A stretch of 9,782 nt of DNA from a virus (Duplodnaviria; Heunggongvirae; Uroviricota; Caudoviricetes). The stretch is taken from IMG/VR virus record IMGVR_UViG_2582580933_000022; one strand, 5' to 3'. Below, in pieces: positions 1-9,782 of this stretch; position 1 is the first letter of the stretch; each line of letters opens with the position of its first letter. Position numbers and translations under genes: made by a program. The notes beneath the pieces are model-generated. The model ran no database searches and was not told where the DNA came from. It was given only the letters and a program-made list of their open reading frames with translations.

Positions 1-282
1 TTACCGCCGCAATCGTTCCGGCTTCTTCCACTGGTAAGTATTTTTCGCGCTCTCCCTCCGTTGTTGAGAACGGCGACGGTATGCCAGCAACTCAAGGACT
101 CTTGTTCGTATGTTGCGCATATCCACGCCGTTAAGCTCAATACCATCACGGCGCATCACCTCAGCAACAACACGCACATAATTTTCAGCGGTCACGCTGT
201 CCGGTTGTGTGGCCTGTTCGTCATGCTGCTGGCTGATTCCGACGACGCGGCGGATTAATCCCAGTAGTTCGGCTTCAGTCAT
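1..282 (-). CDS. hypothetical protein, N-terminal 93 codons only (gene runs off the left edge); first gene downstream of the Nu1-like terS
   Basis: ATG at 282-280 preceded by a GAGGG Shine-Dalgarno with 4-nt spacer; frame open to the window edge; 73-nt gap after the terS stop. No family recognised; it does not resemble the lambda gpA N-terminus as I recall it. Confidence 0.4.
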   Translation of the reverse strand: MTEAELLGLIRRVVGISQQHDEQATQPDSVTAENYVRVVAEVMRRDGIELNGVDMRNIRTRVLELLAYRRRSQQRRESAKNTYQWKKPERLRR

Positions 283-355
283 TGTGCCCTCATCGTTCTG
301 ATAGCCTGGTGTCGTCGGGTCCTTCCTGGAATTATGGCCCGTTACGGGGCGGCGG

Positions 356-883
356 TTACTCGCCTTTGTTCTGTAGCAACTTCTCAGGCACGTTTCCGGT
401 AGTTTCCATCAGGTAATCAGCCAGTATCTGTGGCAGGTTTTCGTCAAGTCTTGCACATGCGTTACATGCTTTGGCTATTTCCCTTTTTAGTTCATCCAGC
501 ATATACGGCCTTATATCGGGAAAGCGCCTTTGCATTGTGAGCGGGAGGCTGTCCATGATTGATGAAATCTGACTCGCTAGTTTTGAAATCGCGTAGATGC
601 AAAACTTTGTATCAATCACCTCGCCGCGTTCGCGTTCGTTTTTAAGTTCCTGCGCTTCCGCCTGGGCCGTCATTAATCTGATTCTTACGCGTAAAAGTTC
701 ATCATCATCAATCTCGCCTTTGTCGTTTGTAAGCTGGTTAATTGCATTGTTAACCCTATTGTCTATCACGCTGGCAACATCATAAAACGCCTCACGGCCT
801 TTACGCTCAACGGGAGTTACTCCCCACTTGTCGAACGCTGTCGCACTTACGCGGCAGCTTTGCGCCATAGTTTTTTTGTTCAT
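356..883 (-). CDS. terminase small subunit, lambda Nu1 family
   Basis: Full-length by-eye alignment to lambda Nu1 (181 aa): N-terminal MNKKTMAQSCRVSATAFDKWGV vs MEVNKKQLADIFGASIRTIQNWQEQGMPV, and a strongly conserved block LMTAQAEAQELKNERERGEVIDTKFC...LPLTMQRRFP vs LTRAQADAQELKNARDSAEVVETAFC...LPLSVQRRFP. Start placed at ATG 883 by homology; in-frame alternatives are ATG 898 and GTG 910. None has a strong SD. Confidence 0.8.
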   Translation of the reverse strand: MNKKTMAQSCRVSATAFDKWGVTPVERKGREAFYDVASVIDNRVNNAINQLTNDKGEIDDDELLRVRIRLMTAQAEAQELKNERERGEVIDTKFCIYAISKLASQISSIMDSLPLTMQRRFPDIRPYMLDELKREIAKACNACARLDENLPQILADYLMETTGNVPEKLLQNKGE

Positions 884-1009
884 CAGGTGCGATTTCATCA
901 ATATCCCCACTTAGTTAAGGTTTCAGGTTGGTGTGTTGGTGTTATCTTTCCCTTTTTATTCATAGAGATAGAGCGAAAAACAAAACCACCACCACCACCC
1001 TGAAAAAGC

Positions 1010-1054
1010 TCATAAATAGCGAAAAATCGCAAGGTCGCCGCCCCGTAGCCTACC
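1010..1054 (-). other. lambda-type cos site: cosN 12-nt cohesive-end core at 1043..1032 (minus strand) with conserved flanks
   Basis: Minus strand reads GGCTACG-GGGCGGCGACCT-TGCGATTTTTCGCTATTTATGA. The 12-mer is identical to the lambda cohesive end, and the next ~22 nt match the lambda left end (CGCGGGTTTTCGCTATTTATGA) at most positions; the upstream flank resembles lambda GGTTACG. It lies 149 nt upstream of the Nu1-like gene in the same orientation, as in lambda. Confidence 0.75.
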
Positions 1055-1099
1055 GGATCGCCGGAAAGGACCCGCCAGCCAGAACGGGCCCTAATTTCA

Positions 1100-1483
1100 T
1101 CAACCAATCAACTTATAGCGACCATCCCGTGCATTGCGACGTACACGCTCAATCTTGAGGCATAGCGCCGCATCTGGCTTTTTTGGGACAGGTACGCGGC
1201 AATATTCAGAAGCTCGAGGAATATTGTTTATCCAGTCGATCACTTCACTTAAATACCAGGCCTTACGCCCTTCCGTAACCTGTACGCGTTCGGGGAACTC
1301 TCCGCGAGCCTCAAGGTTTAGCAATGTGCGACGGCTAAGGGTAGTAAGTTCCATCACCTGATTCATATCAACAAGGCGTTCACTTAAACGCATTTTGTCA
1401 GCAATAGCCTTTAATTCCTCTACTGCTGGATCCGGATACATCATTTCGGCAATTGGCTTAAGGTCATTGTAATGATTCTGCAT
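1100..1483 (-). CDS. AlpA/Xis-type (MerR-like winged HTH) DNA-binding protein, 127 aa, with N- and C-terminal extensions
   Basis: Central segment MELTTLSRRTLLNLEARGEFPERVQVTEGRKAWYLSEVIDWI fits the AlpA/excisionase HTH pattern (L..V.E.TG.SR.T.Y.L...G.FP.P.K.G.R...W...E...W). ATG 1483 preceded by AGGGGGA SD; start lies 11 nt after the stop of the gpD-like gene. Confidence 0.6.
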   Translation of the reverse strand: MQNHYNDLKPIAEMMYPDPAVEELKAIADKMRLSERLVDMNQVMELTTLSRRTLLNLEARGEFPERVQVTEGRKAWYLSEVIDWINNIPRASEYCRVPVPKKPDAALCLKIERVRRNARDGRYKLIG

Positions 1484-1494
1484 TGTATCCCCCT

Positions 1495-1836
1495 TTACAC
1501 ACGAGCCAGCGGCTGAACAGAAATACCTGAGCCAACAAACGCGGCAACCTTTGCCGACAGTTCTTTTACAGACTCAGGCCAGTTCAGAGCATCAACATTT
1601 AAAACACCTGTCTTATAAACCTGTGCCTGTGTTTTTTTCGCTGTGTCGATTTGTACAGCGGAAACATAAACCGCTTTGCCTGCGCTCGTTCCATCCCATA
1701 CCACTAGCGCACCAGTTGCATCTTCCTGCATCAGTGGCGTAAACGCAGGTATTACCCCTTTATTGGCTGAAAATATCCCCAGCGTAGTAACCAGTGCTTC
1801 AGTGCCAGACATGAGTTCAGTGTAATGAGTAGCCAT
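1495..1836 (-). CDS. head decoration protein, lambda gpD family
   Basis: 113 aa vs lambda gpD 110 aa. Shared blocks: TPLM, LVVWDGT (gpD LVAWDGT), YKTG (YKSG), WPE, AFVGSGIS (AFAGTAIS). ATG 1836 preceded by GGGGGAG SD, directly after the capsid gene stop (TAAGGGGGAGCAATG). Confidence 0.75.
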   Translation of the reverse strand: MATHYTELMSGTEALVTTLGIFSANKGVIPAFTPLMQEDATGALVVWDGTSAGKAVYVSAVQIDTAKKTQAQVYKTGVLNVDALNWPESVKELSAKVAAFVGSGISVQPLARV

Positions 1837-1845
1837 TGCTCCCCC

Positions 1846-2892
1846 TTAGCCAATGCGAACGGTAACAAAACGATTGATGCGGGCCGGTATTGGCTGTGGT
1901 GCTGAATGTGTCTGCACATATTCAATAGCCGGATCACCAGGCACAATATAGTTTTTCGGTGCAAGTTCGGCTTTAGTCAGCCCCATTCGGATTAGCTCCG
2001 GATCCTGAATACCGCCATAGGCGACAATCCCCTGAAGAGCCGTATTGCCAAGCACCATCAAATCAGGATCAAGGAAATATTTTTCAGTTCCGTCCTCGTC
2101 GGTATAACGCCCGCTGTAAACAACAATCGCAACATCGCCCATATACCCTTTAAAACTCACCGAATCACCAAGGTCTTTAAGGGCCGTTTCCAGTTCGGAA
2201 TTAGAACCACGACGAGTATCCAGAGCCTCTTTTATCGCCCTGAATGAACGGTATTTCTTCCATACATTACCGCCCATAATGATAATATTAGTGACTCCCT
2301 CACTAAATTCTGCGTAGCTCTCAATATCATCATTTGGATCAAAAGCTTCTTTATCCTTACCTGACCACTCAGTACCGCCAGACTGAGTGATGATATTTTG
2401 TGGTTTAATATTCCAGTCCAGCTCATAACGTTCAATACCATCGCCCTCAATGATATTTTTCCCCGTTGTGATTGCCTGAACGGCAAGCCATTCAATACGT
2501 GCACGAATAGCTTTAGCCTGATTTACAATCGCCTGTTTAACTTTAATATTACGCGCTCCAAAAGCATTGTATTGTTCAGGTGATACACCAGCAGGGCGCA
2601 CAGCTAACTTATTTGGATCAATGCTGCTTTTCGGTTTCATATAGCCAGGGCGAATTGTTTTTGACTCGTATCCCTCATCTCGTGAAACTTTACTGCCCAC
2701 CATAGGAGAGCAAAACGCCGCGATCGGGATATTTGGATCGTCGATCGTATCAAGAATAATGTCTCTCGATTCAAACATTACCGAGCGAGTGAAAAACAAA
2801 CTGGTAAACAACGCATTTAATTTTTTTTGCACATCCTCAGCATTAGCCACCTGCATAAGCTGTGTAGGCGAATATAAATCAACCATACTCAT
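1846..2892 (-). CDS. major capsid protein, lambda gpE family
   Basis: Near-identical blocks to lambda gpE as I recall it: NIITQSGGTEWSGKDKEAFDPNDDIESYA vs NNITQSGGTEWSKRDKSTYDPTDDIEAYA; LDTRRGSNSELETALKDLG vs LDTRRGSNSELETAVKDLG; GDVAIVVYSG; MVLGNT. N-terminus MSMVDLYSPTQL vs gpE MSMYTTAQLL. The ORF track extends to 2973, but homology and the AAGAGG SD place the start at ATG 2892 (or ATG 2886); predicted ~348 aa vs 341 aa for gpE. Confidence 0.85.
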   Translation of the reverse strand: MSMVDLYSPTQLMQVANAEDVQKKLNALFTSLFFTRSVMFESRDIILDTIDDPNIPIAAFCSPMVGSKVSRDEGYESKTIRPGYMKPKSSIDPNKLAVRPAGVSPEQYNAFGARNIKVKQAIVNQAKAIRARIEWLAVQAITTGKNIIEGDGIERYELDWNIKPQNIITQSGGTEWSGKDKEAFDPNDDIESYAEFSEGVTNIIIMGGNVWKKYRSFRAIKEALDTRRGSNSELETALKDLGDSVSFKGYMGDVAIVVYSGRYTDEDGTEKYFLDPDLMVLGNTALQGIVAYGGIQDPELIRMGLTKAELAPKNYIVPGDPAIEYVQTHSAPQPIPARINRFVTVRIG

Positions 2893-3057: not shown

Positions 3058-3097
3058 ATGCCGGAAAATCTATTTTTTTCCGGCATCTTTTTGTTTG
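3058..3097. terminator. GC-cored hairpin (ATGCCGGAAAA / TTTTCCGGCAT) followed by CTTTTTGTTTG, in the AT-rich gap between ssb and the capsid operon
   Basis: Inverted repeat 3058-3068 and 3076-3086 seen directly. A T-run follows on the plus strand, while on the minus strand an A-rich run precedes it, so which strand it terminates is uncertain. It may end the ssb transcript and/or insulate the late operon. Confidence 0.35.
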
Positions 3098-3103
3098 CAG
3101 AAT

Positions 3104-3526
3104 TTAAAACGGTATATTATCGCCGTACGGTTCATCATTCCCTGACTGTTGTTTTGCCCTGTTCAGTGCGTCAGTGGCCTGCCCCTGCTGGCCTTTTTTG
3201 CCGCCCGGTCGCGCCGCTCGCGCACTGATTACGCTGTCTGCGATAACCTGCCAGCCCTGCCGCGTTTCGCCGTTCTGGCCTGTCCACTGGCTTACCTGCA
3301 TGTTACCCGCCACGCTCACCAGTTCGCCTTTGTGGTGTCTGGCCAGTGCGTCGGCCTGTCTGCCAAACGCCAGGACAGATAACCACATCGTCGCCGTTCC
3401 GTCATCTGCCTGGCTGCACGGCAGGGGAACCGCCATACTCGCCATCGCCATTTGTGTCCCTTTGCTGGTGGTCTTTAACTGCGGGTCAGCCACCAGCCGC
3501 CCGTAAGCCGCTATCTGTGCTGTCAT
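3104..3526 (-). CDS. ssb: single-stranded DNA-binding protein (SSB)
   Basis: 140 aa; OB-fold region aligns with E. coli SSB (ATMWLSVLAFGRQADALARHHKGELVSVAGNMQVSQWTGQNGETRQGWQVIAD vs [53 protein letters not shown]). Gly/Gln-rich linker and C-terminal acidic tail ending ...DEPYGDNIPF, the canonical SSB protein-interaction tip. ATG 3526 overlaps the upstream stop (ATGA). Confidence 0.8.
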   Translation of the reverse strand: MTAQIAAYGRLVADPQLKTTSKGTQMAMASMAVPLPCSQADDGTATMWLSVLAFGRQADALARHHKGELVSVAGNMQVSQWTGQNGETRQGWQVIADSVISARAARPGGKKGQQGQATDALNRAKQQSGNDEPYGDNIPF

Positions 3527-3768
3527 GCTGTCTGCTCTCCGGTTTTAACATTGATGGTTGTCACCTGTTCCGCTTCGGCAATCTCCCGTTCTGTCAGTGT
3601 GGCAAAGTTTGCCGCCGCTGTGGTCATGAATGCGCTTATCAGTTCGGGATGTGCTTTCGCGTATCCCTCTCCCGCGTTGCGGTCGATGATTTTTATCGCC
3701 ACCCTCAGCCAGTGTTCTGTCAAATCAAGGGCGTGAGATTGTGGTTTTTTTGCGTGCTTCGTTGTCAC
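3523..3768 (-). CDS. hypothetical protein, 81 aa, translationally coupled to ssb
   Basis: GTG start at 3768 with GAGGT SD 7 nt upstream; stop overlaps the ssb ATG. No family recognised. Confidence 0.45.
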   Translation of the reverse strand: MTTKHAKKPQSHALDLTEHWLRVAIKIIDRNAGEGYAKAHPELISAFMTTAAANFATLTEREIAEAEQVTTINVKTGEQTA

Positions 3769-3810
3769 AGGCTTTACCTCACAGCAATAAAATAAAATTT
3801 TTGCATTTTA

Positions 3811-4045
3811 ACCCTTCACCTGTTCACCTTTTGCGATTTTCCCTTTTTATTCATGGTGTTAAGGGGTGAACAGTTTCACAAAAACTATTCACCAACTGTT
3901 CACCACTGTTCACCCTTAAAGCTCAATAAATAATCAAAAAGGTGAACAGTGAATAGTTTGGTGAACAGTTCACAAATAACTGTTCACCCTGTAATATACT
4001 GATATAAAAGACATTTATGACAGGGTGAACAGTGGTGAACAGTTA
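3811..4045. repeat. replication origin iteron array: 9 perfect copies of GGTGAACAG/CTGTTCACC plus degenerate copies, with AT-rich spacers
   Basis: Perfect 9-mers counted by hand: CTGTTCACC at 3820, 3896, 3906, 3980; GGTGAACAG at 3865, 3941, 3960, 4024, 4034. Degenerate copies near 3814, 3885, 3950. AT-rich stretches at 3921-3940 and 3991-4020. Located immediately 3' of the replication gene. The core TGTTCACC is, to my recollection, the P4 alpha-binding type I iteron of ori/crr. Confidence 0.8.
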
Positions 4046-4055
4046 TTCCATAAGT

Positions 4056-5861
4056 TTAATTTTTTCCATCGTCATTTGTGACCGATGCACATGATGGCAT
4101 CCAGTCTTCTGAATCCTCTGTCAGGGTCACATTTGAACGCAAACCGTGCTTCGTTTTCCGTTTCATATACTCCCTGCCATATTCCGCCATTGCCCCCGGC
4201 ATATCTTTACCGAAGCGCGTCAGTGTTACAGGTTTACCGAATCCGTGTGCCCTCATATATGCCAGATAGGCGTGATAAAGATACCTGCGCGGACTGAACG
4301 GAATAATTTCGGCATTACCCACTAACAGACCATCACACATTACCGACGACATGAGATAGCCGCAGAAGTCCACCAGCGAATCGCCCTCGCGTTTTATCAC
4401 CAGAGCTTCTTCTGATTTCTGCTGCTCATACAGCAGGCGTTTAGCTTCGTCCTGGTCAGAAAAACGAGTAAGCAGGTGGCGAATCACAACCGCCAGCTCT
4501 CCTTCTATTTTTTCTGCCAGCATGGGGTCGCGTTCGTTTTCCGGTACAACCTCCGAAAAATTGAATATCACCCGACGACGTGAGATCCCCCCGCTGCGGT
4601 CACTGAATGACATGGCGTTATTGTTCACCGCCAGCACGACCGCCTGAATGCGTGTTGAGTAGGGGGCTTTATGCTTCGGGTCGATTGCCACCTTGTCACC
4701 GCCTGTAATGGCCTTAATTCCTGCGCCATCACCAGCGTAGCGGGTCATATCCGGCATGATAATCAGCGAAAAGCCAACCACTAACGCGCGTTCCCTGGCA
4801 TCTTCCAGCGCCTTCATGCTTGCCGATACCGTGTTGGCCTTACCCGCCAGCATGGTGCAAATCTCCGCCATTACGCTTTTACCGCTTCCACCCGGCCCCG
4901 TTACCTCAAGAAATAACTGCCAGTCGTACCGGTTCGCCAGCACCATGAATAACGCCGCCAGTACGCGATCCGCTTTACGGTCATTCTCTGCCACCGAACG
5001 GCGCAACCATTTCCAGAAATTCGGCGCATGCGTTGCCAGCGTTTCCCCCTCTGCTGGTGGGCTGAACGGTAATTCACTGGCAATTAACAGCCAGTCGTTT
5101 TTGTCATGCTCCCGAAAATCGCCTGTCCGGGTATCAAAAACACCGTTACTGAATCCAATCAGGTTACGGGCGGTATTCCCCATTACGGGCAAACTTAACT
5201 TCATGGTATCGACCGCCGATTTGATGGCGTTCTGCGAATAACTGATCTCCGCATCAATAAAAATCTGCGCCATAGCCCGCTGTAACTCTTTATCCTGTAC
5301 TGGCTCCCATACAACGCCGTTGTAGTGGTGAACGGTGTCAGAGTCCGCATTAATTGCCAGTTCGCCGCCATAACGTGCCAGGAGAACTTCGCCGCGCTGG
5401 CTTGCTCCCATCTGGTTAAGCGCCAGTGGTGCGGCGCTGTCTTCTGTTTTTTTCTTAACAGGAAGCTGAATAACCAGACCATCAGAAAGATTCTGGCGCT
5501 CACGCTCCAGATATTCGCGCCACTCCTCCCGCTTCTGGCTGTGCATTCCCTCAGGGTAATATCTCGCATCCTGTACACCTGCCGCCGCCAGCTTTTGCCC
5601 GATGGCATTAATATTTGACGGCTTGATGTGGCCTGCCTTGTACAGCCGGACACAATAGCGACCATCGTCGATAATTTTCAGGTCTGCCAGTTCGTCAAGC
5701 TGGCTGTCTCCAAGCCATACAGGTGGCACGTTGTCGCCAGCAAGTCGCCCGTCCTGTTCCTGCCATTGTTTCGCGTGCGCCCAGGCATCGCTACCCGCAA
5801 AAATAATGACTTCGGTCATTTTGTCGTGTGGCTGTTTTTTTAAGTTCGGTGCCAGTTTCAT
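4056..5861 (-). CDS. replication initiator, P4-alpha / PICI Pri-Rep family (D5-like SF3 helicase P-loop domain)
   Basis: 601 aa; Walker A VTGPGGSGKSV, downstream Walker B-like hydrophobic stretch and GGDKVAID...RRRVIFNFSE region typical of phage/plasmid primase C-terminal (P4 family) helicase domains. ATG 5861 with AGGGG SD; ATGA overlap with the upstream ORF stop. Iterons lie immediately downstream. Confidence 0.8.
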   Translation of the reverse strand: MKLAPNLKKQPHDKMTEVIIFAGSDAWAHAKQWQEQDGRLAGDNVPPVWLGDSQLDELADLKIIDDGRYCVRLYKAGHIKPSNINAIGQKLAAAGVQDARYYPEGMHSQKREEWREYLERERQNLSDGLVIQLPVKKKTEDSAAPLALNQMGASQRGEVLLARYGGELAINADSDTVHHYNGVVWEPVQDKELQRAMAQIFIDAEISYSQNAIKSAVDTMKLSLPVMGNTARNLIGFSNGVFDTRTGDFREHDKNDWLLIASELPFSPPAEGETLATHAPNFWKWLRRSVAENDRKADRVLAALFMVLANRYDWQLFLEVTGPGGSGKSVMAEICTMLAGKANTVSASMKALEDARERALVVGFSLIIMPDMTRYAGDGAGIKAITGGDKVAIDPKHKAPYSTRIQAVVLAVNNNAMSFSDRSGGISRRRVIFNFSEVVPENERDPMLAEKIEGELAVVIRHLLTRFSDQDEAKRLLYEQQKSEEALVIKREGDSLVDFCGYLMSSVMCDGLLVGNAEIIPFSPRRYLYHAYLAYMRAHGFGKPVTLTRFGKDMPGAMAEYGREYMKRKTKHGLRSNVTLTEDSEDWMPSCASVTNDDGKN

Positions 5862-6157
5862 TTTTTGCCCCTGAATGCGTTAATCATGTTTTTCATTTTC
5901 TGAATATTTGCCCGTGCCTTTGCGTTGCTGGTGGGCTGTCTGCGTGGTGTGGCCTGTACCAGCGAAAAATCACGCCGGAACTGATAAACAGGCATCACGC
6001 AGTCATAACCGTACCCATCACGGCGGTAAGTAACGCACCGTCCCGCCACGCTTTTAATCGTTACCGTGCCGCCGTAGTTATCCCGGAAAATATCGTCGGG
6101 GCGGATTTCAGGCCGAGCGGGGCCGCTGGCAGTAAAGCCAGAATTTTTCTTTTTCAT
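5858..6157 (-). CDS. hypothetical protein, 99 aa, early operon
   Basis: ATG 6157 with GGAG SD; stop overlaps the replication gene start. Basic, Gly/Tyr-rich. No family recognised. Confidence 0.5.
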   Translation of the reverse strand: MKKKNSGFTASGPARPEIRPDDIFRDNYGGTVTIKSVAGRCVTYRRDGYGYDCVMPVYQFRRDFSLVQATPRRQPTSNAKARANIQKMKNMINAFRGKK

Positions 6158-6412: not shown

Positions 6413-6641
6413 GGCTCACCACCACCATATCAGCCATGATAATTTTGCTGGCCTCATTCAGCGCCATATCAGCACTAAATTGCATAACAGCCAGTGAGTG
6501 AGGAACGAAAGCCCCGGCATATTCTGTTTCGCTGGTGGCGTGCTTATGCGCCTTGTCTGCGATAACAGAAATATCAATCAGCGCGTCCATCAGCGTTCTG
6601 ATAGCCTCGGCGGCTGCGTCCGGACGGGTGTTATTGCACAT
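6405..6641 (-). CDS. hypothetical protein, 78 aa, early operon
   Basis: ATG 6641 with AGGGGG SD 6 nt upstream; overlaps the stop of the candidate upstream ORF. No family recognised. Confidence 0.5.
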   Translation of the reverse strand: MCNNTRPDAAAEAIRTLMDALIDISVIADKAHKHATSETEYAGAFVPHSLAVMQFSADMALNEASKIIMADMVVVSHE

Positions 6642-6837
6642 GGCGCACCCCCTGACGAATACGGGCGGCGAATACCATCACGCAGCCAGCCGGGGATTGC
6701 TGGCGTGCTTCCTGTTCGCTGGTGGCCTCAATGGTAATCACGCGCGGCTGTGCCGTGCTCAGGGCGATAAAACGCCAGATGTATTTACTTAGGTTGTGCG
6801 AGTCCCGCCCTTGCGGGTGTATGGTATGATTTCTCAT
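6631..6837 (-). CDS. hypothetical protein, 68 aa; candidate first gene of the early operon
   Basis: This is the last 68 codons of the 399-aa ORF in the track. ATG 6837 with GAGG SD 5 nt upstream; stop/start overlap with the next gene (ATGTGCAATAA). The rest of the 399-aa frame is judged spurious. Confidence 0.4.
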   Translation of the reverse strand: MRNHTIHPQGRDSHNLSKYIWRFIALSTAQPRVITIEATSEQEARQQSPAGCVMVFAARIRQGVRHVQ

Positions 6838-6933
6838 AGCTGCCTCGATAATCTTGCTATCGTTGGTGGTTAGAAGCCCTGCGAGTGCTAACGACACTTG
6901 TGGGGCTTTGCTTTTTACTGTACCTACTGATAT

Positions 6934-6977
6934 TGTACGTACGTAACAGCAATGATAATAGGAGTTACGTACGTACA
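6934..6977. promoter_or_regulatory. operator: perfect 14-bp inverted repeat TGTACGTACGTAAC (6934-6947) / GTTACGTACGTACA (6964-6977), 16-bp spacer, overlapping the RBS and ATG of the RHH gene
   Basis: Seen directly; each arm contains the self-complementary core GTACGTAC. Candidate sigma70 elements TTGCTT (6908-6913), 17-bp spacer, TATTGT (6931-6936) sit just upstream on the plus strand. The region is also the divergent intergenic for the minus-strand early operon. Confidence 0.6.
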
Positions 6978-7168
6978 TGTCAACATTAAAGCGCGATAAA
7001 TCGCCACGCGGTGAGGGATGGTCTCCAACCTTCCAAATCAGAATCAGTAAAGAGCTACGCCAACAAGTAAATGAGGCGGCAACTTCTGACGGTCTAACCC
7101 TTGGTAACTGGTTTAAAGAATTAGCTAGGGCAGAACTAAAGCGGCGCGGCATTGAACCAAAAGGATAA
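6977..7168 (+). CDS. ribbon-helix-helix (Arc/MetJ/CopG-type) DNA-binding protein, 63 aa
   Basis: Segment FQIRISKELRQQVNEAATSDGLTLGNWFKELARAEL has the beta-strand / helix / GxT-turn / helix layout of RHH proteins. ATG 6977 lies inside the right operator arm. AT-rich coding sequence. Confidence 0.6.
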   Translation: MSTLKRDKSPRGEGWSPTFQIRISKELRQQVNEAATSDGLTLGNWFKELARAELKRRGIEPKG

Positions 7169-7195
7169 AAGCAATTTCGTTTAAGGTAACACGAT

Positions 7196-7549
7196 ATGAA
7201 ATACGAATTCTTTGCAACCAGTAGTTCAGGAATGGATGTATATATAGTGACCGTATCCAATGACACTGGGCCTTTAATTATGAAATGTAACTGCGCTGCT
7301 GGTGAGAAGGGGATTTTATGCAGGCATAGAAAAGCTCTTATTACTCGAAAAATTAAAGGTGTTTTTACACCGCCAAGGCGTAACGACCCAGAAAAACTAA
7401 AGGAAGCAATGGACTTAATTGCTGTGTATGGGATCGAAAGAAAGTTAGAATTATACACTGCAGAGTTAGAACAGGCGGAGCAAACATGGTTGATCGTTCG
7501 TTCTGCTATAAAATCCAAGATCAACTCTCTTGTTGAACCCAAAGGCTGA
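7196..7549 (+). CDS. small SWIM zinc-finger domain protein, 117 aa, function unknown
   Basis: Motif VYIVTVSNDTGPLIMKCNCAAGEKGILCRHRKAL matches the SWIM signature CxCx(n)CxH with the conserved upstream hydrophobic strand. AAGGT SD 9 nt upstream; 27-nt gap after the RHH gene; AT-rich like its partner. Confidence 0.55.
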   Translation: MKYEFFATSSSGMDVYIVTVSNDTGPLIMKCNCAAGEKGILCRHRKALITRKIKGVFTPPRRNDPEKLKEAMDLIAVYGIERKLELYTAELEQAEQTWLIVRSAIKSKINSLVEPKG

Positions 7550-7655
7550 CAGCCCACCAGCAAGCCAGCACACTGATCACATTGCCAACCAGCCGCAAAT
7601 GTGGCATTGTTGGCTATGCTCATGCGTTGGGGATAACGTGTAGCTTGTGTCGAGG

Positions 7656-7684
7656 GGCCACCGTAGCGGGTGGCCTTTGTTTTG
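7656..7684 (+). terminator. Rho-independent terminator ending the RHH-SWIM operon
   Basis: GGCCACC-gtagcg-GGTGGCC perfect 7-bp GC-rich stem followed by TTTGTTTT; about 105 nt downstream of the SWIM gene stop. Confidence 0.65.
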
Positions 7685-7834
7685 CCTGTTATCCGGCAAT
7701 TGTGGCGCTTCGCCACACGGTTGATATAATTCCCCTGCACTGATCCATTTTTTTCGCAGCAGGTTAATTGTTCGCAAGGGCGCTCCGGCAACGGGGCGCT
7801 TTTTGTTATGTTCATCGCGTTACGCCTCACACCA

Positions 7835-8041
7835 TTACGCAGCCGTTCCGCGCGCTTCTTCCTCGCGCTCTTTCAGCCAGGCCAGCACTTCATCTTCATA
7901 CCAGCCAACACGACGCAGACCGATTTTGAAGCCTTTCGGGAATTTTCCGGCGTTGATCATGTCCTGTAGCGAACTGTCTGCCTTGATGCGCAGAATATTT
8001 TTTACTTCCTGACGGGTAAGTATTTTTCTGATTGTTTCCAC
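7835..8041 (-). CDS. alpA: AlpA-family prophage transcriptional regulator / excisionase-like HTH protein, 68 aa
   Basis: ILTRQEVKNILRIKADSSLQDMINAGKFPKGFKIGLRRVGWYEDEVLAWL matches the AlpA pattern (compare E. coli AlpA ...ILRLPAVIQKTGMARATIYDWLNPKSPRYDATFPKKRQLGVKSVGWIEAEIDEWL). GTG start at 8041 with GAGGT SD 8 nt upstream; canonical position next to int. Confidence 0.8.
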   Translation of the reverse strand: METIRKILTRQEVKNILRIKADSSLQDMINAGKFPKGFKIGLRRVGWYEDEVLAWLKEREEEARGTAA

Positions 8042-8106
8042 TATGTTTTACCTCGTTAATCCGGCGTATTCCGGTGATAAATACGGTAAAACAGGGCAGG
8101 GCGGGA

Positions 8107-8146
8107 AAAACAGTACCCACCGTTTTAAAACGGTACCCACTGTTTT
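8107..8146. promoter_or_regulatory. two tandem 20-bp repeats AAAACAGTACCCACCGTTTT / AAAACGGTACCCACTGTTTT with strong internal dyad symmetry, 66-105 bp upstream of alpA
   Basis: Seen directly: 18/20 identity between the repeats; the junction forms the perfect 16-bp palindrome ACCGTTTTAAAACGGT, and the outer ends AAAACAGT/ACTGTTTT are also complementary. Candidate regulator-binding site controlling alpA. Confidence 0.5.
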
Positions 8147-8176
8147 TTATCTCATTGATTACGCTTTTCTTTCTGC

Positions 8177-8540: not shown

Positions 8541-9782
8541 TTACACGGCACGGATACCCCTTTTACCACTGGCTATGGTCACTCCGGTAGCTGCGGCCTC
8601 TACAAATTCCCCCCACCAGCGCATAAGCACCACGCGCTTTTCCAGGTAGTTACTTCGGTTATATGCTCGCCTTACCTCGTTCGTGTCCACGTGTGCGAGC
8701 GCGGCCTCGATTACGTCCGGCTCGAATCCTTCCTCGTTCGCTGCTGTGCTGAATATGGCGCGTAATCCGTGAGACACCAGCACACCAGCGTAACCCATCC
8801 GGCGCAATGCGGCGTTAGCGGTCTGGCTGCTCATTGGCAGCATCGGGTTTTTAAGGCTGGGAAAAACGTGTTCCCTATGTGCGCTGATTGGCTTCATGGT
8901 TTCCAGTACAGCCATAGCCTGACCGCAAAGGGGGATCACATGGTCACGGCGCATCTTCATGCGTCCGGCTGGAATCGTCCAGGTTTCGGCATCGAGATCT
9001 ATTTCTTCCCAGCGTGCGGCGGCTGCTTCGGCTGGGCGTGCTACGGTCAGCAGTTGCCACTCAATCAGCAATCTGGTTTGCCGTTCTATGCTGGCGACCG
9101 ATAAATCGTGCATTAGCTGCGGTAGCTGTTCCGGTCGGATGGTTGGCATGTGCTTTTTGGTGGGTGAGGGGAATGCCTTGCGGACGTTCGCGGCGGTGTT
9201 GATGTCAATCAGCCCACTGTTGGCAGCAAAATCCATCACTTCATTGATGCGTTGTAAAACGCGTTTCAGGGTTTCCAGGTTGCCGCGTGCTTTAATGGGT
9301 GTGAGTATCTCAACAAAGCGGCGAGCTGTGAGGGTATCTATTGGCGTGTTTCCGATGTACGGGAATACGTATTTTTCCAGGGATCGCCAGATATCCTTAA
9401 TCGTGTTGTAAGCCAGATTCTGGCCTTTTTTCATCTCGTACCAGTCCGAGGCAACTTTTTCGAACGTGTTGCCCTTTTTCCGACTCTCTGCTTCACGTTT
9501 CCGGCGTTCGTGGTCCTGTGGGTCAACTCCCTTCGCTATGAGTGACCTGTATTCATTCCGTCGTTCTCTGGCATCGGACAGGGAAACATCATTCAGCGAT
9601 CCGAGGCTGATGATAGTCCGTTTTTTATCTGCCGGGCGGTAGTACGTAAAACGCCAGATTTTTGATCCGGAGGGTTTCACCAGAAGAAATAATCCTCCAC
9701 CATCCTGCAGGGTGTATTCCTTTTCCCCAGGTCGTGCGTTTTTGATCTCCGTAATGGTTAGTGGGGTGGTTTTTCGTGCCAT
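8541..9782 (-). CDS. int: site-specific tyrosine recombinase, P4-type integrase
   Basis: 413 aa; N-terminal arm-type domain (TLQDGGGLFLLVKPSGSKIWRFTYY...ISLGS...SLSDARERR) and C-terminal catalytic region (HGLRAIFST...ALAHVDTNEVRRAYNRSNYLEKR) typical of P4 / CP4-57 IntA-like integrases. The ATG is bases 9782-9780, the last three bases of the window, so attachment site and any target tRNA are outside it. Confidence 0.9.
   Translation of the reverse strand: MARKTTPLTITEIKNARPGEKEYTLQDGGGLFLLVKPSGSKIWRFTYYRPADKKRTIISLGSLNDVSLSDARERRNEYRSLIAKGVDPQDHERRKREAESRKKGNTFEKVASDWYEMKKGQNLAYNTIKDIWRSLEKYVFPYIGNTPIDTLTARRFVEILTPIKARGNLETLKRVLQRINEVMDFAANSGLIDINTAANVRKAFPSPTKKHMPTIRPEQLPQLMHDLSVASIERQTRLLIEWQLLTVARPAEAAAARWEEIDLDAETWTIPAGRMKMRRDHVIPLCGQAMAVLETMKPISAHREHVFPSLKNPMLPMSSQTANAALRRMGYAGVLVSHGLRAIFSTAANEEGFEPDVIEAALAHVDTNEVRRAYNRSNYLEKRVVLMRWWGEFVEAAATGVTIASGKRGIRAV

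Follow-up and report, generated by a model that had tools for sequence, protein, structure and literature searches.

Capsid, decoration and small terminase genes in the packaging zone of a probable EcCICFT073-family satellite

Described satellites with capsid and packaging genes

The prototype island EcCICFT073 (Fillol-Salom et al. 2018 ISME J; 2019 Mol Cell) is organized as int, alpA, DUF4222, primase, iteron ori, SSB, capsid (c1499), decoration (c1500), a small variable gene, cos1, a packaging-specificity gene, cos2 and an ORF of 93 aa. Its cosQ and cosN are of the lambda type and its helpers are lambda-like. Helper-dependent induction and high-frequency transfer have been demonstrated for EcCICFT073 only, and the DNA packaged with lambda was all phage-sized, while deletion of c1499 or c1500 changed neither transfer nor interference with lambda (PMC6092414). 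When the genes located after the ori were cloned, only c1503 (rppA) reduced lambda plaque formation (PMC6739421). In turn, small capsids are produced by PmCI172, a Pasteurella PICI that also encodes a capsid homologue, but they have not been traced to a particular gene (PMC6092414).

Capsid genes are common in this type of satellite. The PICI model of SatelliteFinder (Moura de Sousa et al. 2023 NAR) counts as core components the integrase, AlpA regulator, primase-replicase, capsid morphogenesis and small terminase (PMC10085698), and 21 of the 29 reference PICIs have a capsid gene (PMC10111431). Capsid-forming islands (cf-PICIs) such as EcCIEDL933 have an int-alpA-rep backbone and satellite capsid and TerS genes, to which they add protease, portal, head-tail connectors, HNH and TerL. 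Their capsids are small and self-made. The cos-packaged staphylococcal satellite SaPIbov5 encodes Ccm, a homologue of the helper major capsid protein, which has been shown to redirect capsid size and shape (PMC8569155), an effect not seen for the EcCICFT073 homologue.

Layout of the island and its packaging zone

The window, i.e., the whole 9.8-kb stretch of DNA that we analysed, is likely a classical Gram-negative PICI of the EcCICFT073 family, with positions 356-2892 as its late or packaging zone, in which a capsid pair is combined with cos and a Nu1-type TerS, as the sequence-only reading had noted (Table 1). The features listed in that reading (gpE, gpD, an AlpA-like protein, cos, TerS and a satellite backbone) were all found, far beyond chance, and the gene order matches that of EcCICFT073 gene for gene. 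The genes for the integrase, AlpA regulator and primase/replicase share one orientation with the capsid-like gene and terS (ORF list, Pfam, PHROG), and P4-type integrase domains, AlpA, a D5_N/Pox_D5 primase and GGTGAACAG iterons bear out the proposed backbone. By the published SatelliteFinder definition, all five core components are present in their usual order, the size is near the reported median of 9.5 kb, tail, holin, portal and TerL genes are absent, and there is no material difference from a PICI. This type of E. coli satellite is well described already, and its lambda-like capsid and decoration genes were reported in 2018.

Table 1. Annotated features of the window
Feature	Position	Strand	Evidence
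Terminal ORF, 93 aa, conserved, PHROG 1561 (no assigned function)	1..282	-	PHROG
Inverted half cos (cos2 remnant): cosQ and first 9 nt of cosN	316..354	+	inverted repeat; homology to EcCICFT073 cos2
Small terminase, lambda Nu1 / N15 gp1 type, 180 aa, full length	356..898	-	Pfam, BLASTP
cosB-like region of TerS-type PICIs: (GGT)n run, then ATGAATAAAAAGGGAAA at 947-963	911..1029	-	alignment
cos1, lambda type: cosQ and cosN, the latter an exact 12-nt GGGCGGCGACCT at 1032-1043	1030..1075	-	alignment with helper cos and EcCICFT073 cos1
AlpA-like winged-helix protein, 127 aa; variable slot between decoration gene and cos	1100..1483	-	Pfam, PHROG
Head decoration protein homologue, lambda gpD / phage 21 SHP type, 113 aa	1495..1836	-	Pfam, PDB matches
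Major capsid protein homologue, lambda gpE type, HK97 fold, 346 aa, PICI-specific clade	1846..2886	-	Pfam, BLASTP, AlphaFold2
Iteron replication origin, GGTGAACAG repeats, just 3' of the primase gene	about 3800-4060		repeat scan
Primase/replicase (D5_N, DUF5906, Pox_D5)	4056..5861	-	Pfam, PHROG
AlpA regulator	7835..8041	-	PHROG
Tyrosine integrase, P4/CP4-57 type	8541..9782	-	Pfam

The att flanks fall outside the window, which contains no tRNA gene that could mark them, and the att repeats were taken from a relative (L001) instead, where two 28-nt repeats at tRNA-Pro are separated by 10,995 bp. Whole-window relatives occupy the tRNA-Pro site, whereas EcCICFT073 resides next to phoQ, and the complete islands measure about 11 kb between att repeats, in keeping with the 10-15 kb or so that characterize Gram-negative PICIs. 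A nearly identical island is present in strain E2 (NZ_CP104509.1). To the left of the packaging module, where a head gene set might have been expected, complete relatives have att repeats followed by chromosomal genes, and their islands end there without further head genes. Portal, protease and TerL genes are missing between the att repeats of all att-bounded islands examined, and neither the window (ORF list, Pfam and PHROG) nor the complete relatives have tail, lysis, portal or large terminase genes. The same holds for the maturation protease, connectors and HNH that cf-PICIs add, although the int-alpA-rep backbone is the same. The terminal 93-aa ORF occupies an identical position in EcCICFT073 and in the relatives L001 and L003-L006.

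Resemblance to lambda is confined to parts of its head region (cos-Nu1-A-W-B-C-Nu3-D-E). The cosQ/cosN, Nu1, gpD and gpE homologues are present, yet they represent only three of about nine genes, with protein identities of 37-42% and a different cosB; E precedes D, and the order in the window is E-D-HTH-cos-Nu1, without any counterpart of A, W, B or C. With P4 the window shares only the integrase and primase classes, and the scanned ORFs gave no Pfam or PHROG matches to P4-like Sid, Psu or Delta. Helper-embedded PICIs form a further group, of which 11capE (PMC10111431) is an example. In two of them the capsid-decoration-HTH-cos-terS module is 88-90% identical to that of the window at the nucleotide level (98.8% for the capsid protein), although these islands have another integrase and lie inside the E gene (L005) or the portal gene (L006) of the helper rather than at tRNA-Pro. 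As the same module sits within the E and portal genes of lambda-like prophages, the helper type is lambda-like.

The proposal that the module is tightly coupled in one operon holds in part. The gaps between E and D and between D and the HTH gene are only 9 and 11 nt, but a 190-nt gap with cos inside separates the HTH gene from terS, and because this gap splits off terS, one operon is something that we can only infer. Promoter-like sites were no more frequent in the window than in shuffled sequence. One such site, at 2954-2927 on the minus strand, precedes the capsid gene, and there is a strong hairpin at 3058-3086 with its T-tail on the opposite strand.

The presence of cos and of a Nu1-like TerS was confirmed by the exact cosN and by a Pfam Phage_Nu1 match (9.3e-24). 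The stretch of about 75 nt that spans cosQ and cosN is nearly identical to that of a lambda-like helper. Farther along, the cosB-like region is common to the window and to O157 and helper-embedded TerS-type PICIs, and is unlike both the EcCICFT073 (Rpp type) and the lambda cosB. An inverted half cos at 316-354 had been overlooked in the sequence-only reading; it is homologous to EcCICFT073 cos2, which is likewise inverted but complete. TerS shows 37% identity to lambda Nu1 over 179 residues and 48% to N15 gp1. It aligns to the C-terminus of lambda Nu1, the TerL-binding region included, whereas the N-terminal wHTH is divergent, with differences in both the recognition helix and the wing. We also considered whether this protein could be an Rpp, a class defined by about 144-153 aa and a wHTH with a coiled-coil that lacks the TerL-binding tail, and rejected this assignment, since the protein has 180 aa, aligns with lambda Nu1 to the C-terminus, gave no BLASTP alignment to RppA and, when compared with PDB sequences, matched neither RppC nor the N-terminal domain of lambda Nu1.

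In place of RppA and its cosB, the window thus has a full-length Nu1-type TerS with a different cosB, and Nu1-type terS with its own cosB forms a cassette alternative to rppA between two inverted cos sites. The breakpoints of Megablast matches are located no more than about 25 nt from cosN. The terS cassette outnumbers rppA about sevenfold in complete E. coli genomes, while our literature searches found no experiments on PICIs with a Nu1-type TerS; therefore, the rppA-based model system may not represent how most such islands direct packaging.

Conservation of the capsid and decoration genes

Both genes of the capsid pair encode complete homologues, as had been read from the sequence (Pfam, PHROG, AlphaFold2). 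The gpE-like protein matches Pfam Phage_cap_E (5.9e-41) and PHROG 29 (2.3e-91), and lambda gpE, with 41.8% identity over the full length, is the best of 50,697 phage records. Identity is 55% to EcCICFT073 c1499 (PDB 3BQW) and 42% to gpE of the L006 helper, which is lambda-like. According to the AlphaFold2 model (mean pLDDT 79, pTM 0.80; TM 0.89 to 3BQW and 0.84-0.87 to lambda gpE), the protein has a complete gpE-type fold, in line with the proposed homology. Like SaPIbov5, which is unrelated in sequence, the island thus encodes a homologue of a helper major capsid protein with the same fold; it differs in its additional decoration protein and its own TerS. Translation probably starts at ATG 2886, which gives 346 aa and matches RefSeq relatives, and not at ATG 2892, because the latter overlaps the Shine-Dalgarno sequence.

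The gpD-like protein matches Pfam HDPD (2.3e-15) and, among PDB entries, phage 21 SHP (1TD0, 2.8e-16) and lambda gpD (1.3e-12), and is 53% identical to the EcCICFT073 decoration protein. The next gene encodes the AlpA-like protein (PF05930, 1.4e-08; PHROG 2790, 1.8e-48). Homology of this gene to the one in the same slot of EcCICFT073 was considered and rejected, as BLASTP detected no similarity.

The satellite gpE proteins form a clade with members in E. coli, Serratia, Edwardsiella and Lelliottia satellites, 50-99% identical among full-length members, while identity to gpE of phages does not exceed 44%. In each relative examined, from these four genera, the decoration gene comes after the capsid gene without exception, the reverse of lambda. 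Among 5,426 complete E. coli genomes, the window type occurs in 395 and the CFT073 type in 598. The gpE/gpD pair is kept in satellites of roughly a thousand of these genomes, as well as in other Enterobacterales. The dN/dS values were 0.04-0.2 for gpE, 0.06-0.16 for gpD, 0.01-0.12 for the AlpA-like gene and 0.10-0.27 for terS, and the frameshifts or internal stops expected of pseudogenes are absent from the module genes. The gpE/gpD pair is under strong purifying selection, even at dS > 1.

These data, together with the uniform E-then-D order and the islands devoid of portal, protease and TerL, sustain the earlier view of a satellite rather than a prophage remnant. That the capsid and decoration genes are decaying head genes without current function would agree with the lack of a deletion phenotype for c1499 and c1500, yet the dN/dS values, the intact reading frames, the order kept across four genera and the number of carrier genomes effectively refute it. 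The novelty ascribed to the module did not survive comparison with the literature: Gram-negative PICIs with such a gene pair had been published by 2018 and capsid morphogenesis is core to the PICI model, so the finding re-describes standard enterobacterial PICI architecture and no new kind of system. New in detail are the selection on the pair, the satellite-only gpE clade and the terS cassette as an alternative to rppA. Of interest is that the pair is strongly conserved by selection and yet can be deleted from EcCICFT073 without a laboratory phenotype.

Predicted packaging route and candidate roles of the capsid pair

Judging from the sequence features, the island TerS may bind the island-specific cosB through its divergent N-terminal wHTH, while its conserved C-terminal region would recruit the TerL (gpA) of a lambda-like helper to cosN/cosQ; the TerS cassette would thereby take the place that rppA has in EcCICFT073. 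Rpp islands are no longer transferred when terS of phi80 is deleted, and transfer of TerS-type islands would be expected to persist without the helper Nu1. Helper proheads would be filled with island concatemers, where four copies of about 11 kb would give about 44 kb, roughly 91% of the lambda genome. The gpE/gpD pair appears to be old, satellite-specific, co-inherited and retained by purifying selection. Its most likely role would be to be made late and to enter or form expanded lambda-type shells, which would use the portal, scaffold and protease of the helper, with the cognate decoration protein binding lattice sites made by the satellite capsid protein. Since the pair is dispensable for transfer and does not shrink capsids in EcCICFT073, any role would be helper-specific or subtle, and co-assembly with helper gpE is not assured at a sequence identity of 42%. 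Our literature searches found no demonstrated function for a PICI capsid/decoration pair.

The sequence-only reading had expected altered, probably smaller capsids, i.e., co-assembly of the satellite gpE and gpD with helper proteins into shells that exclude the helper genome, in the manner of SaPIbov5 Ccm. We consider this unlikely. EcCICFT073 gave only phage-sized DNA with lambda and was unchanged in transfer and interference upon deletion of c1499 or c1500, four copies of an island of about 11 kb suit a normal lambda head, and no portal, scaffold or size-determining factor was found in the island; on the other side stand the complete HK97-fold capsid protein with its cognate decoration protein under purifying selection, its lineage separate from all phage gpE, and the small capsids of PmCI172 (PMC6092414), which also has a capsid homologue. 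Furthermore, the window capsid is only 55% identical to the tested c1499, so a helper-specific capsid role is conceivable. The identity of 42% to helper gpE makes simple substitution doubtful if the satellite gene were a back-up for a helper E gene interrupted by related islands and a passenger in chromosomal ones. This idea, raised in PMC10111431, is suggested by the module found in PICIs inside the E gene and inside the portal gene. Yet it seems very improbable, as the helper gene is restored on excision, most carriers are not helper-embedded (whole-window relatives being at tRNA-Pro), portal-embedded islands bring a capsid gene and no portal gene, and the linked decoration gene is left unexplained.

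Purifying selection without a transfer phenotype could also point to phages or host defences as the targets, with the homologues acting as poison subunits for competitor lambdoid phages or as decoys for capsid-sensing defence. PICIs often carry interference and defence functions. Nevertheless, we regard this as rather improbable, because the deletions did not relieve interference with lambda, the cloned genes did not cut lambda plaques, and the kept decoration protein argues for real lattice formation; PADLOC defence models gave no matches to the capsid, decoration or 93-aa proteins.

As for shells of the satellite's own, a doubtful but conceivable variant is that the gpE/gpD pair might give rise to satellite-specific shells on helper portal, scaffold and protease when the helper is a natural lambda-like phage and not laboratory lambda or phi80. 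Such shells could be chimeras or consist of satellite protein throughout, and their T number might be lower. If true, TerS-type PICIs would be a functional intermediate between classical and capsid-forming PICIs. In a Lelliottia relative (L010), a gpC-like S49 protease gene is added after the decoration gene, which fits a gradient from classical to capsid-forming PICIs.

Gene content and boundaries of the island

On its gene content, the window is a classical phage-inducible chromosomal island (PICI). It holds exactly the five core components of the SatelliteFinder PICI model, i.e., integrase, regulator, primase-replicase, capsid morphogenesis and small terminase (PMC10085698), and lacks those that the model excludes, on which grounds a capsid-forming PICI (cf-PICI), a P4-like element and a prophage remnant were rejected. 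Its layout is the standard, already published architecture of enterobacterial PICIs. Gene for gene it resembles EcCICFT073, the prototype Gram-negative PICI (primase, ori, SSB, capsid c1499, decoration c1500, small variable gene, cos1, packaging-specificity gene, cos2 and 93-aa ORF), and a capsid gene is found in 21 of the 29 reference Gram-negative PICIs (PMC10111431).

According to the ORF list, all major genes are carried by the minus strand. The gpE-like, gpD-like, AlpA-like, cos and Nu1-like features named in the sequence-only reading are borne out by Pfam and PHROG matches and by an exact cosN. The tight coupling it described holds for the capsid (E), decoration (D) and HTH genes, separated by gaps of 9 and 11 nt, and not beyond these three. 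The capsid gene lies where it had been placed and very probably begins with the ATG at 2886, the start annotated for its RefSeq relatives.

Features of the window (Pfam, PHROG or domain matches in the last column)
Feature	Position	Strand	Match or remark
Integrase	8541-9782	-	Arm-DNA-bind_3, Phage_int_M, Phage_integrase domains
AlpA	7835-8041	-	
DUF4222 protein	5858-6157	-	
Primase-replicase	4056-5861	-	D5_N/DUF5906/Pox_D5
GGTGAACAG iteron array	about 3800-4060		
Small ORF and SSB	3104-3768	-	
Capsid protein	1846-2886	-	Pfam Phage_cap_E 5.9e-41; PHROG 29 2.3e-91
Decoration protein	1495-1836	-	HDPD (lambda gpD family), 2.3e-15
HTH gene	1100-1483	-	Phage_AlpA 1.4e-08
cosN, exact lambda sequence GGGCGGCGACCT	1032-1043	-	Between HTH gene and terS
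terS	356-898	-	Phage_Nu1 9.3e-24

Since the window ends at the stop codon of the conserved 93-aa ORF on the left and at the integrase start codon on the right, its flanks were taken from relatives. The island of strain 06-00048 (96.7% identity, 93% of the window covered) is flanked by 28-nt direct repeats spaced 10,995 bp apart, one overlapping the tRNA-Pro 3' end. To its left, a hypothetical gene and a PerC-family regulator gene are all that separates the 93-aa ORF from chromosomal yejO. Strain GTEN_23 presents the same flanks, while EcCICFT073 and the O157 island end beside phoQ. None of these four islands encodes portal, protease, scaffold, TerL, tail or lysis functions, so the full head gene set to the left, which would have spoken for an ordinary prophage, is absent from the complete relatives.

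The same capsid-decoration-HTH-cos-terS module (capsid protein 98.8% identical) also occurs in PICIs located inside the E gene (L005, 6580-18650) or the portal gene (L006, 7120-19146) of lambda-like prophages; these are helper-embedded PICIs, and they indicate the type of helper. The split E gene of L005 is surrounded by prophage decoration, protease, FI and tail genes, and the L006 prophage retains Nu1, A, W, the split portal gene, C, D, E and FI. The satellite capsid protein and TerS each share 42% identity with their L006 helper counterparts. L005 additionally carries a TIR-domain gene, with an abortive-infection family gene at its edge.

The cos sites and the terS cassette

We found that the cosQ-cosN stretch around cosN aligns nearly base for base with the cos of a lambda-like prophage. 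The sequence-only reading placed a cos between the HTH gene and Nu1 and missed an inverted half cos site just past the terS stop codon (316-354, plus strand), in which cosQ is retained and cosN is cut after its first 9 nt; the homologous cos2 of EcCICFT073 is complete (compared with L002 8298-8312, minus strand). One junction between the terS and rppA cassettes is within the inverted cos2, in its cosN, and megablast matches to window 300-1500 break at about 1010-1047, at cosN of cos1; the inverted cos pair thus seems to delimit a packaging cassette that can be exchanged. In the O157 island, a Nu1-type terS accompanies capsid, decoration and c1501-like genes of the CFT073 type; by such comparisons, terS and rppA are alternative cassettes.

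TerS shares 37% identity with lambda Nu1 over 179 residues, among them the C-terminal part by which Nu1 binds gpA; it lacks 13 residues of the linker, and its N-terminal wHTH has a different recognition helix and wing. The closest phage relative is N15 gp1 (48% identity), and no similarity of TerS to RppA was detected. Islands of the TerS type have a common cosB, in which ATGAATAAAAAGGGAAA comes after a (GGT)n run and which differs from both the EcCICFT073 and the lambda cosB, as would be expected if TerS and cosB formed a cognate pair. The 17-nt ATGAATAAAAAGGGAAA occurs twice on the minus strand, at 947-963 within cosB, where it lines up with the R2 region of lambda, and at 3838-3854, bordering the iteron ori. 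The 06-00048 island, the further relative L004 and L005 have both, the last with the same GGG-to-GAG change in each copy; another relative, L003, and L006, which have other replicons, retain the cosB copy only. The two copies may represent a protein-binding site common to both loci, or may have arisen by gene conversion.

Among 5,426 complete E. coli genomes, with matches required to cover at least 80% of the query, Nu1-type terS was detected in 719 and rppA, including close variants, in 97; thus, the Rpp mechanism studied by experiment represents a minority of the E. coli PICIs that belong to the EcCICFT073 family. The window-type capsid and decoration genes were present in 395 of these genomes and the CFT073-type pair in 598.

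The sequence itself places a lambda-type cos, together with a Nu1-type TerS of full length, in a satellite without TerL or any other head genes. From lambda terminase biology and the work on Rpp (PMC6739421, PMC9026076) we infer that TerS would bind the island cosB via its divergent wHTH, while its conserved C-terminal region would bring helper gpA to cosN. If both steps hold, the island would not need the helper TerS, unlike Rpp islands, and would compete with the helper for TerL. In the papers searched there were no experiments on the common Nu1-type terS cassette, which, together with the strongly selected, still-unexplained capsid/decoration pair, is where the remaining interest lies.

The capsid and decoration pair

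Over its entire length the capsid protein can be aligned with lambda gpE (41.8% identity), all indels relative to lambda and helper gpE being at most four residues, and is 55% identical to the EcCICFT073 protein of known crystal structure (PDB 3BQW). The structure prediction proposed for it supports the assignment: the AlphaFold2 model (mean pLDDT 79, pTM 0.80) superposes on 3BQW with TM 0.89 and, over the full length, on lambda gpE with TM 0.84-0.87. The decoration protein has sequence matches to the phage 21 SHP and lambda gpD structures. In a comparison of six relatives, dN/dS of the capsid gene was 0.04-0.09 within type and 0.14-0.23 between the window and CFT073 types, with 0.06-0.16 for the decoration gene, 0.01-0.12 for the HTH gene and 0.10-0.27 for terS, and none of the four genes had internal stops. 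These genes are maintained and not decaying, which disposes of the concern that the capsid genes might be pseudogenes.

Among 50,697 phage genomes, the best capsid identity was 41.8%. Full-length homologues in a large protein collection form two groups, a satellite-only clade 50-99% identical to the window protein and a lambda-type group of at most 44%. Each sampled member of the former (Serratia 74%, Edwardsiella 59%, Lelliottia 52%) belongs to an int-alpA-primase satellite some 9-11 kb long, where the decoration gene directly follows the capsid gene. This order is the reverse of that in lambda and the helper prophages, in agreement with the earlier view that the module is not a prophage remnant, and suggests a single ancient capture, with vertical inheritance within satellites ever since. 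In the Lelliottia sp. SL45 satellite (L010, 9001-12337), the capsid and decoration genes are followed by a gpC-like S49 peptidase gene and a 142-aa ORF, and a Phage_HCP gene adjoins alpA; its gene content is between that of classical and capsid-forming PICIs.

As for the role of the pair, the sequence-only reading proposed altered, probably smaller capsids, by analogy with SaPIbov5 Ccm. In EcCICFT073, deletion of c1499 or c1500 left transfer by the resident helper unchanged and did not relieve interference with lambda, the island with cat in place of c1499 was transferred at 10^5-10^6 per ml, and the DNA that EcCICFT073 packaged with lambda was entirely phage-sized (PMC6092414). When the post-ori genes were cloned singly, lambda was inhibited by c1503 (rppA) only (PMC6739421). 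Given the deletion results and the phage-sized DNA, the Ccm-like small-capsid model fails in the only tested case, the closest tested relative; for the window variant small capsids are no more than a possibility. Four copies of an island of ~11.0 kb total about 44 kb, roughly 91% of the lambda genome, which fits multimer packaging into normal heads.

Proteins of the gpD family are known only to bind the threefold sites of the expanded gpE lattice. Together with the invariable linkage of the two genes and their similar divergence between the window and CFT073 types (53% identity for decoration, 55% for capsid), this suggests that the satellite capsid protein is incorporated into such lattices or builds them, which it would do using the helper portal, scaffold and protease. 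Co-assembly of some kind seems to us somewhat short of an even chance, and a redirection of capsid size by the pair improbable.

Putative regulatory sites and accessory ORFs

Directly upstream of alpA there is a near-perfect 42-nt palindrome (AAAAACAGTACCCACCGTTTTAA / TTAAAACGGTACCCACTGTTTTT, 8106-8147), which could be an operator of the induction switch. A hairpin with a strong 11-bp stem (3058-3086) lies between the SSB and capsid genes, its T-run being on the plus strand, antisense to all surrounding genes, and a weak sigma-70-like site (2954-2927, minus strand) is located upstream of the capsid gene.

The longest ORF of its region (399 aa, 6631-7830, minus strand) overlaps the plus-strand accessory genes and is probably not a real gene; only its 3' part matches Icd-like (pseudo)genes in relatives. 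The two plus-strand accessory ORFs, of 63 aa (6977-7168) and 117 aa (7196-7549), are situated between the Icd-like region and alpA. The 117-aa one encodes a SWIM zinc-finger protein (Pfam 8.7e-05), with a weak PADLOC match to PDC-S62 (2e-4), and no annotated ORF of the closest relative, in strain 06-00048, matches it. The 63-aa one has a weak HicB match and occupies the place where relatives have a YlcI/YnfO family gene.
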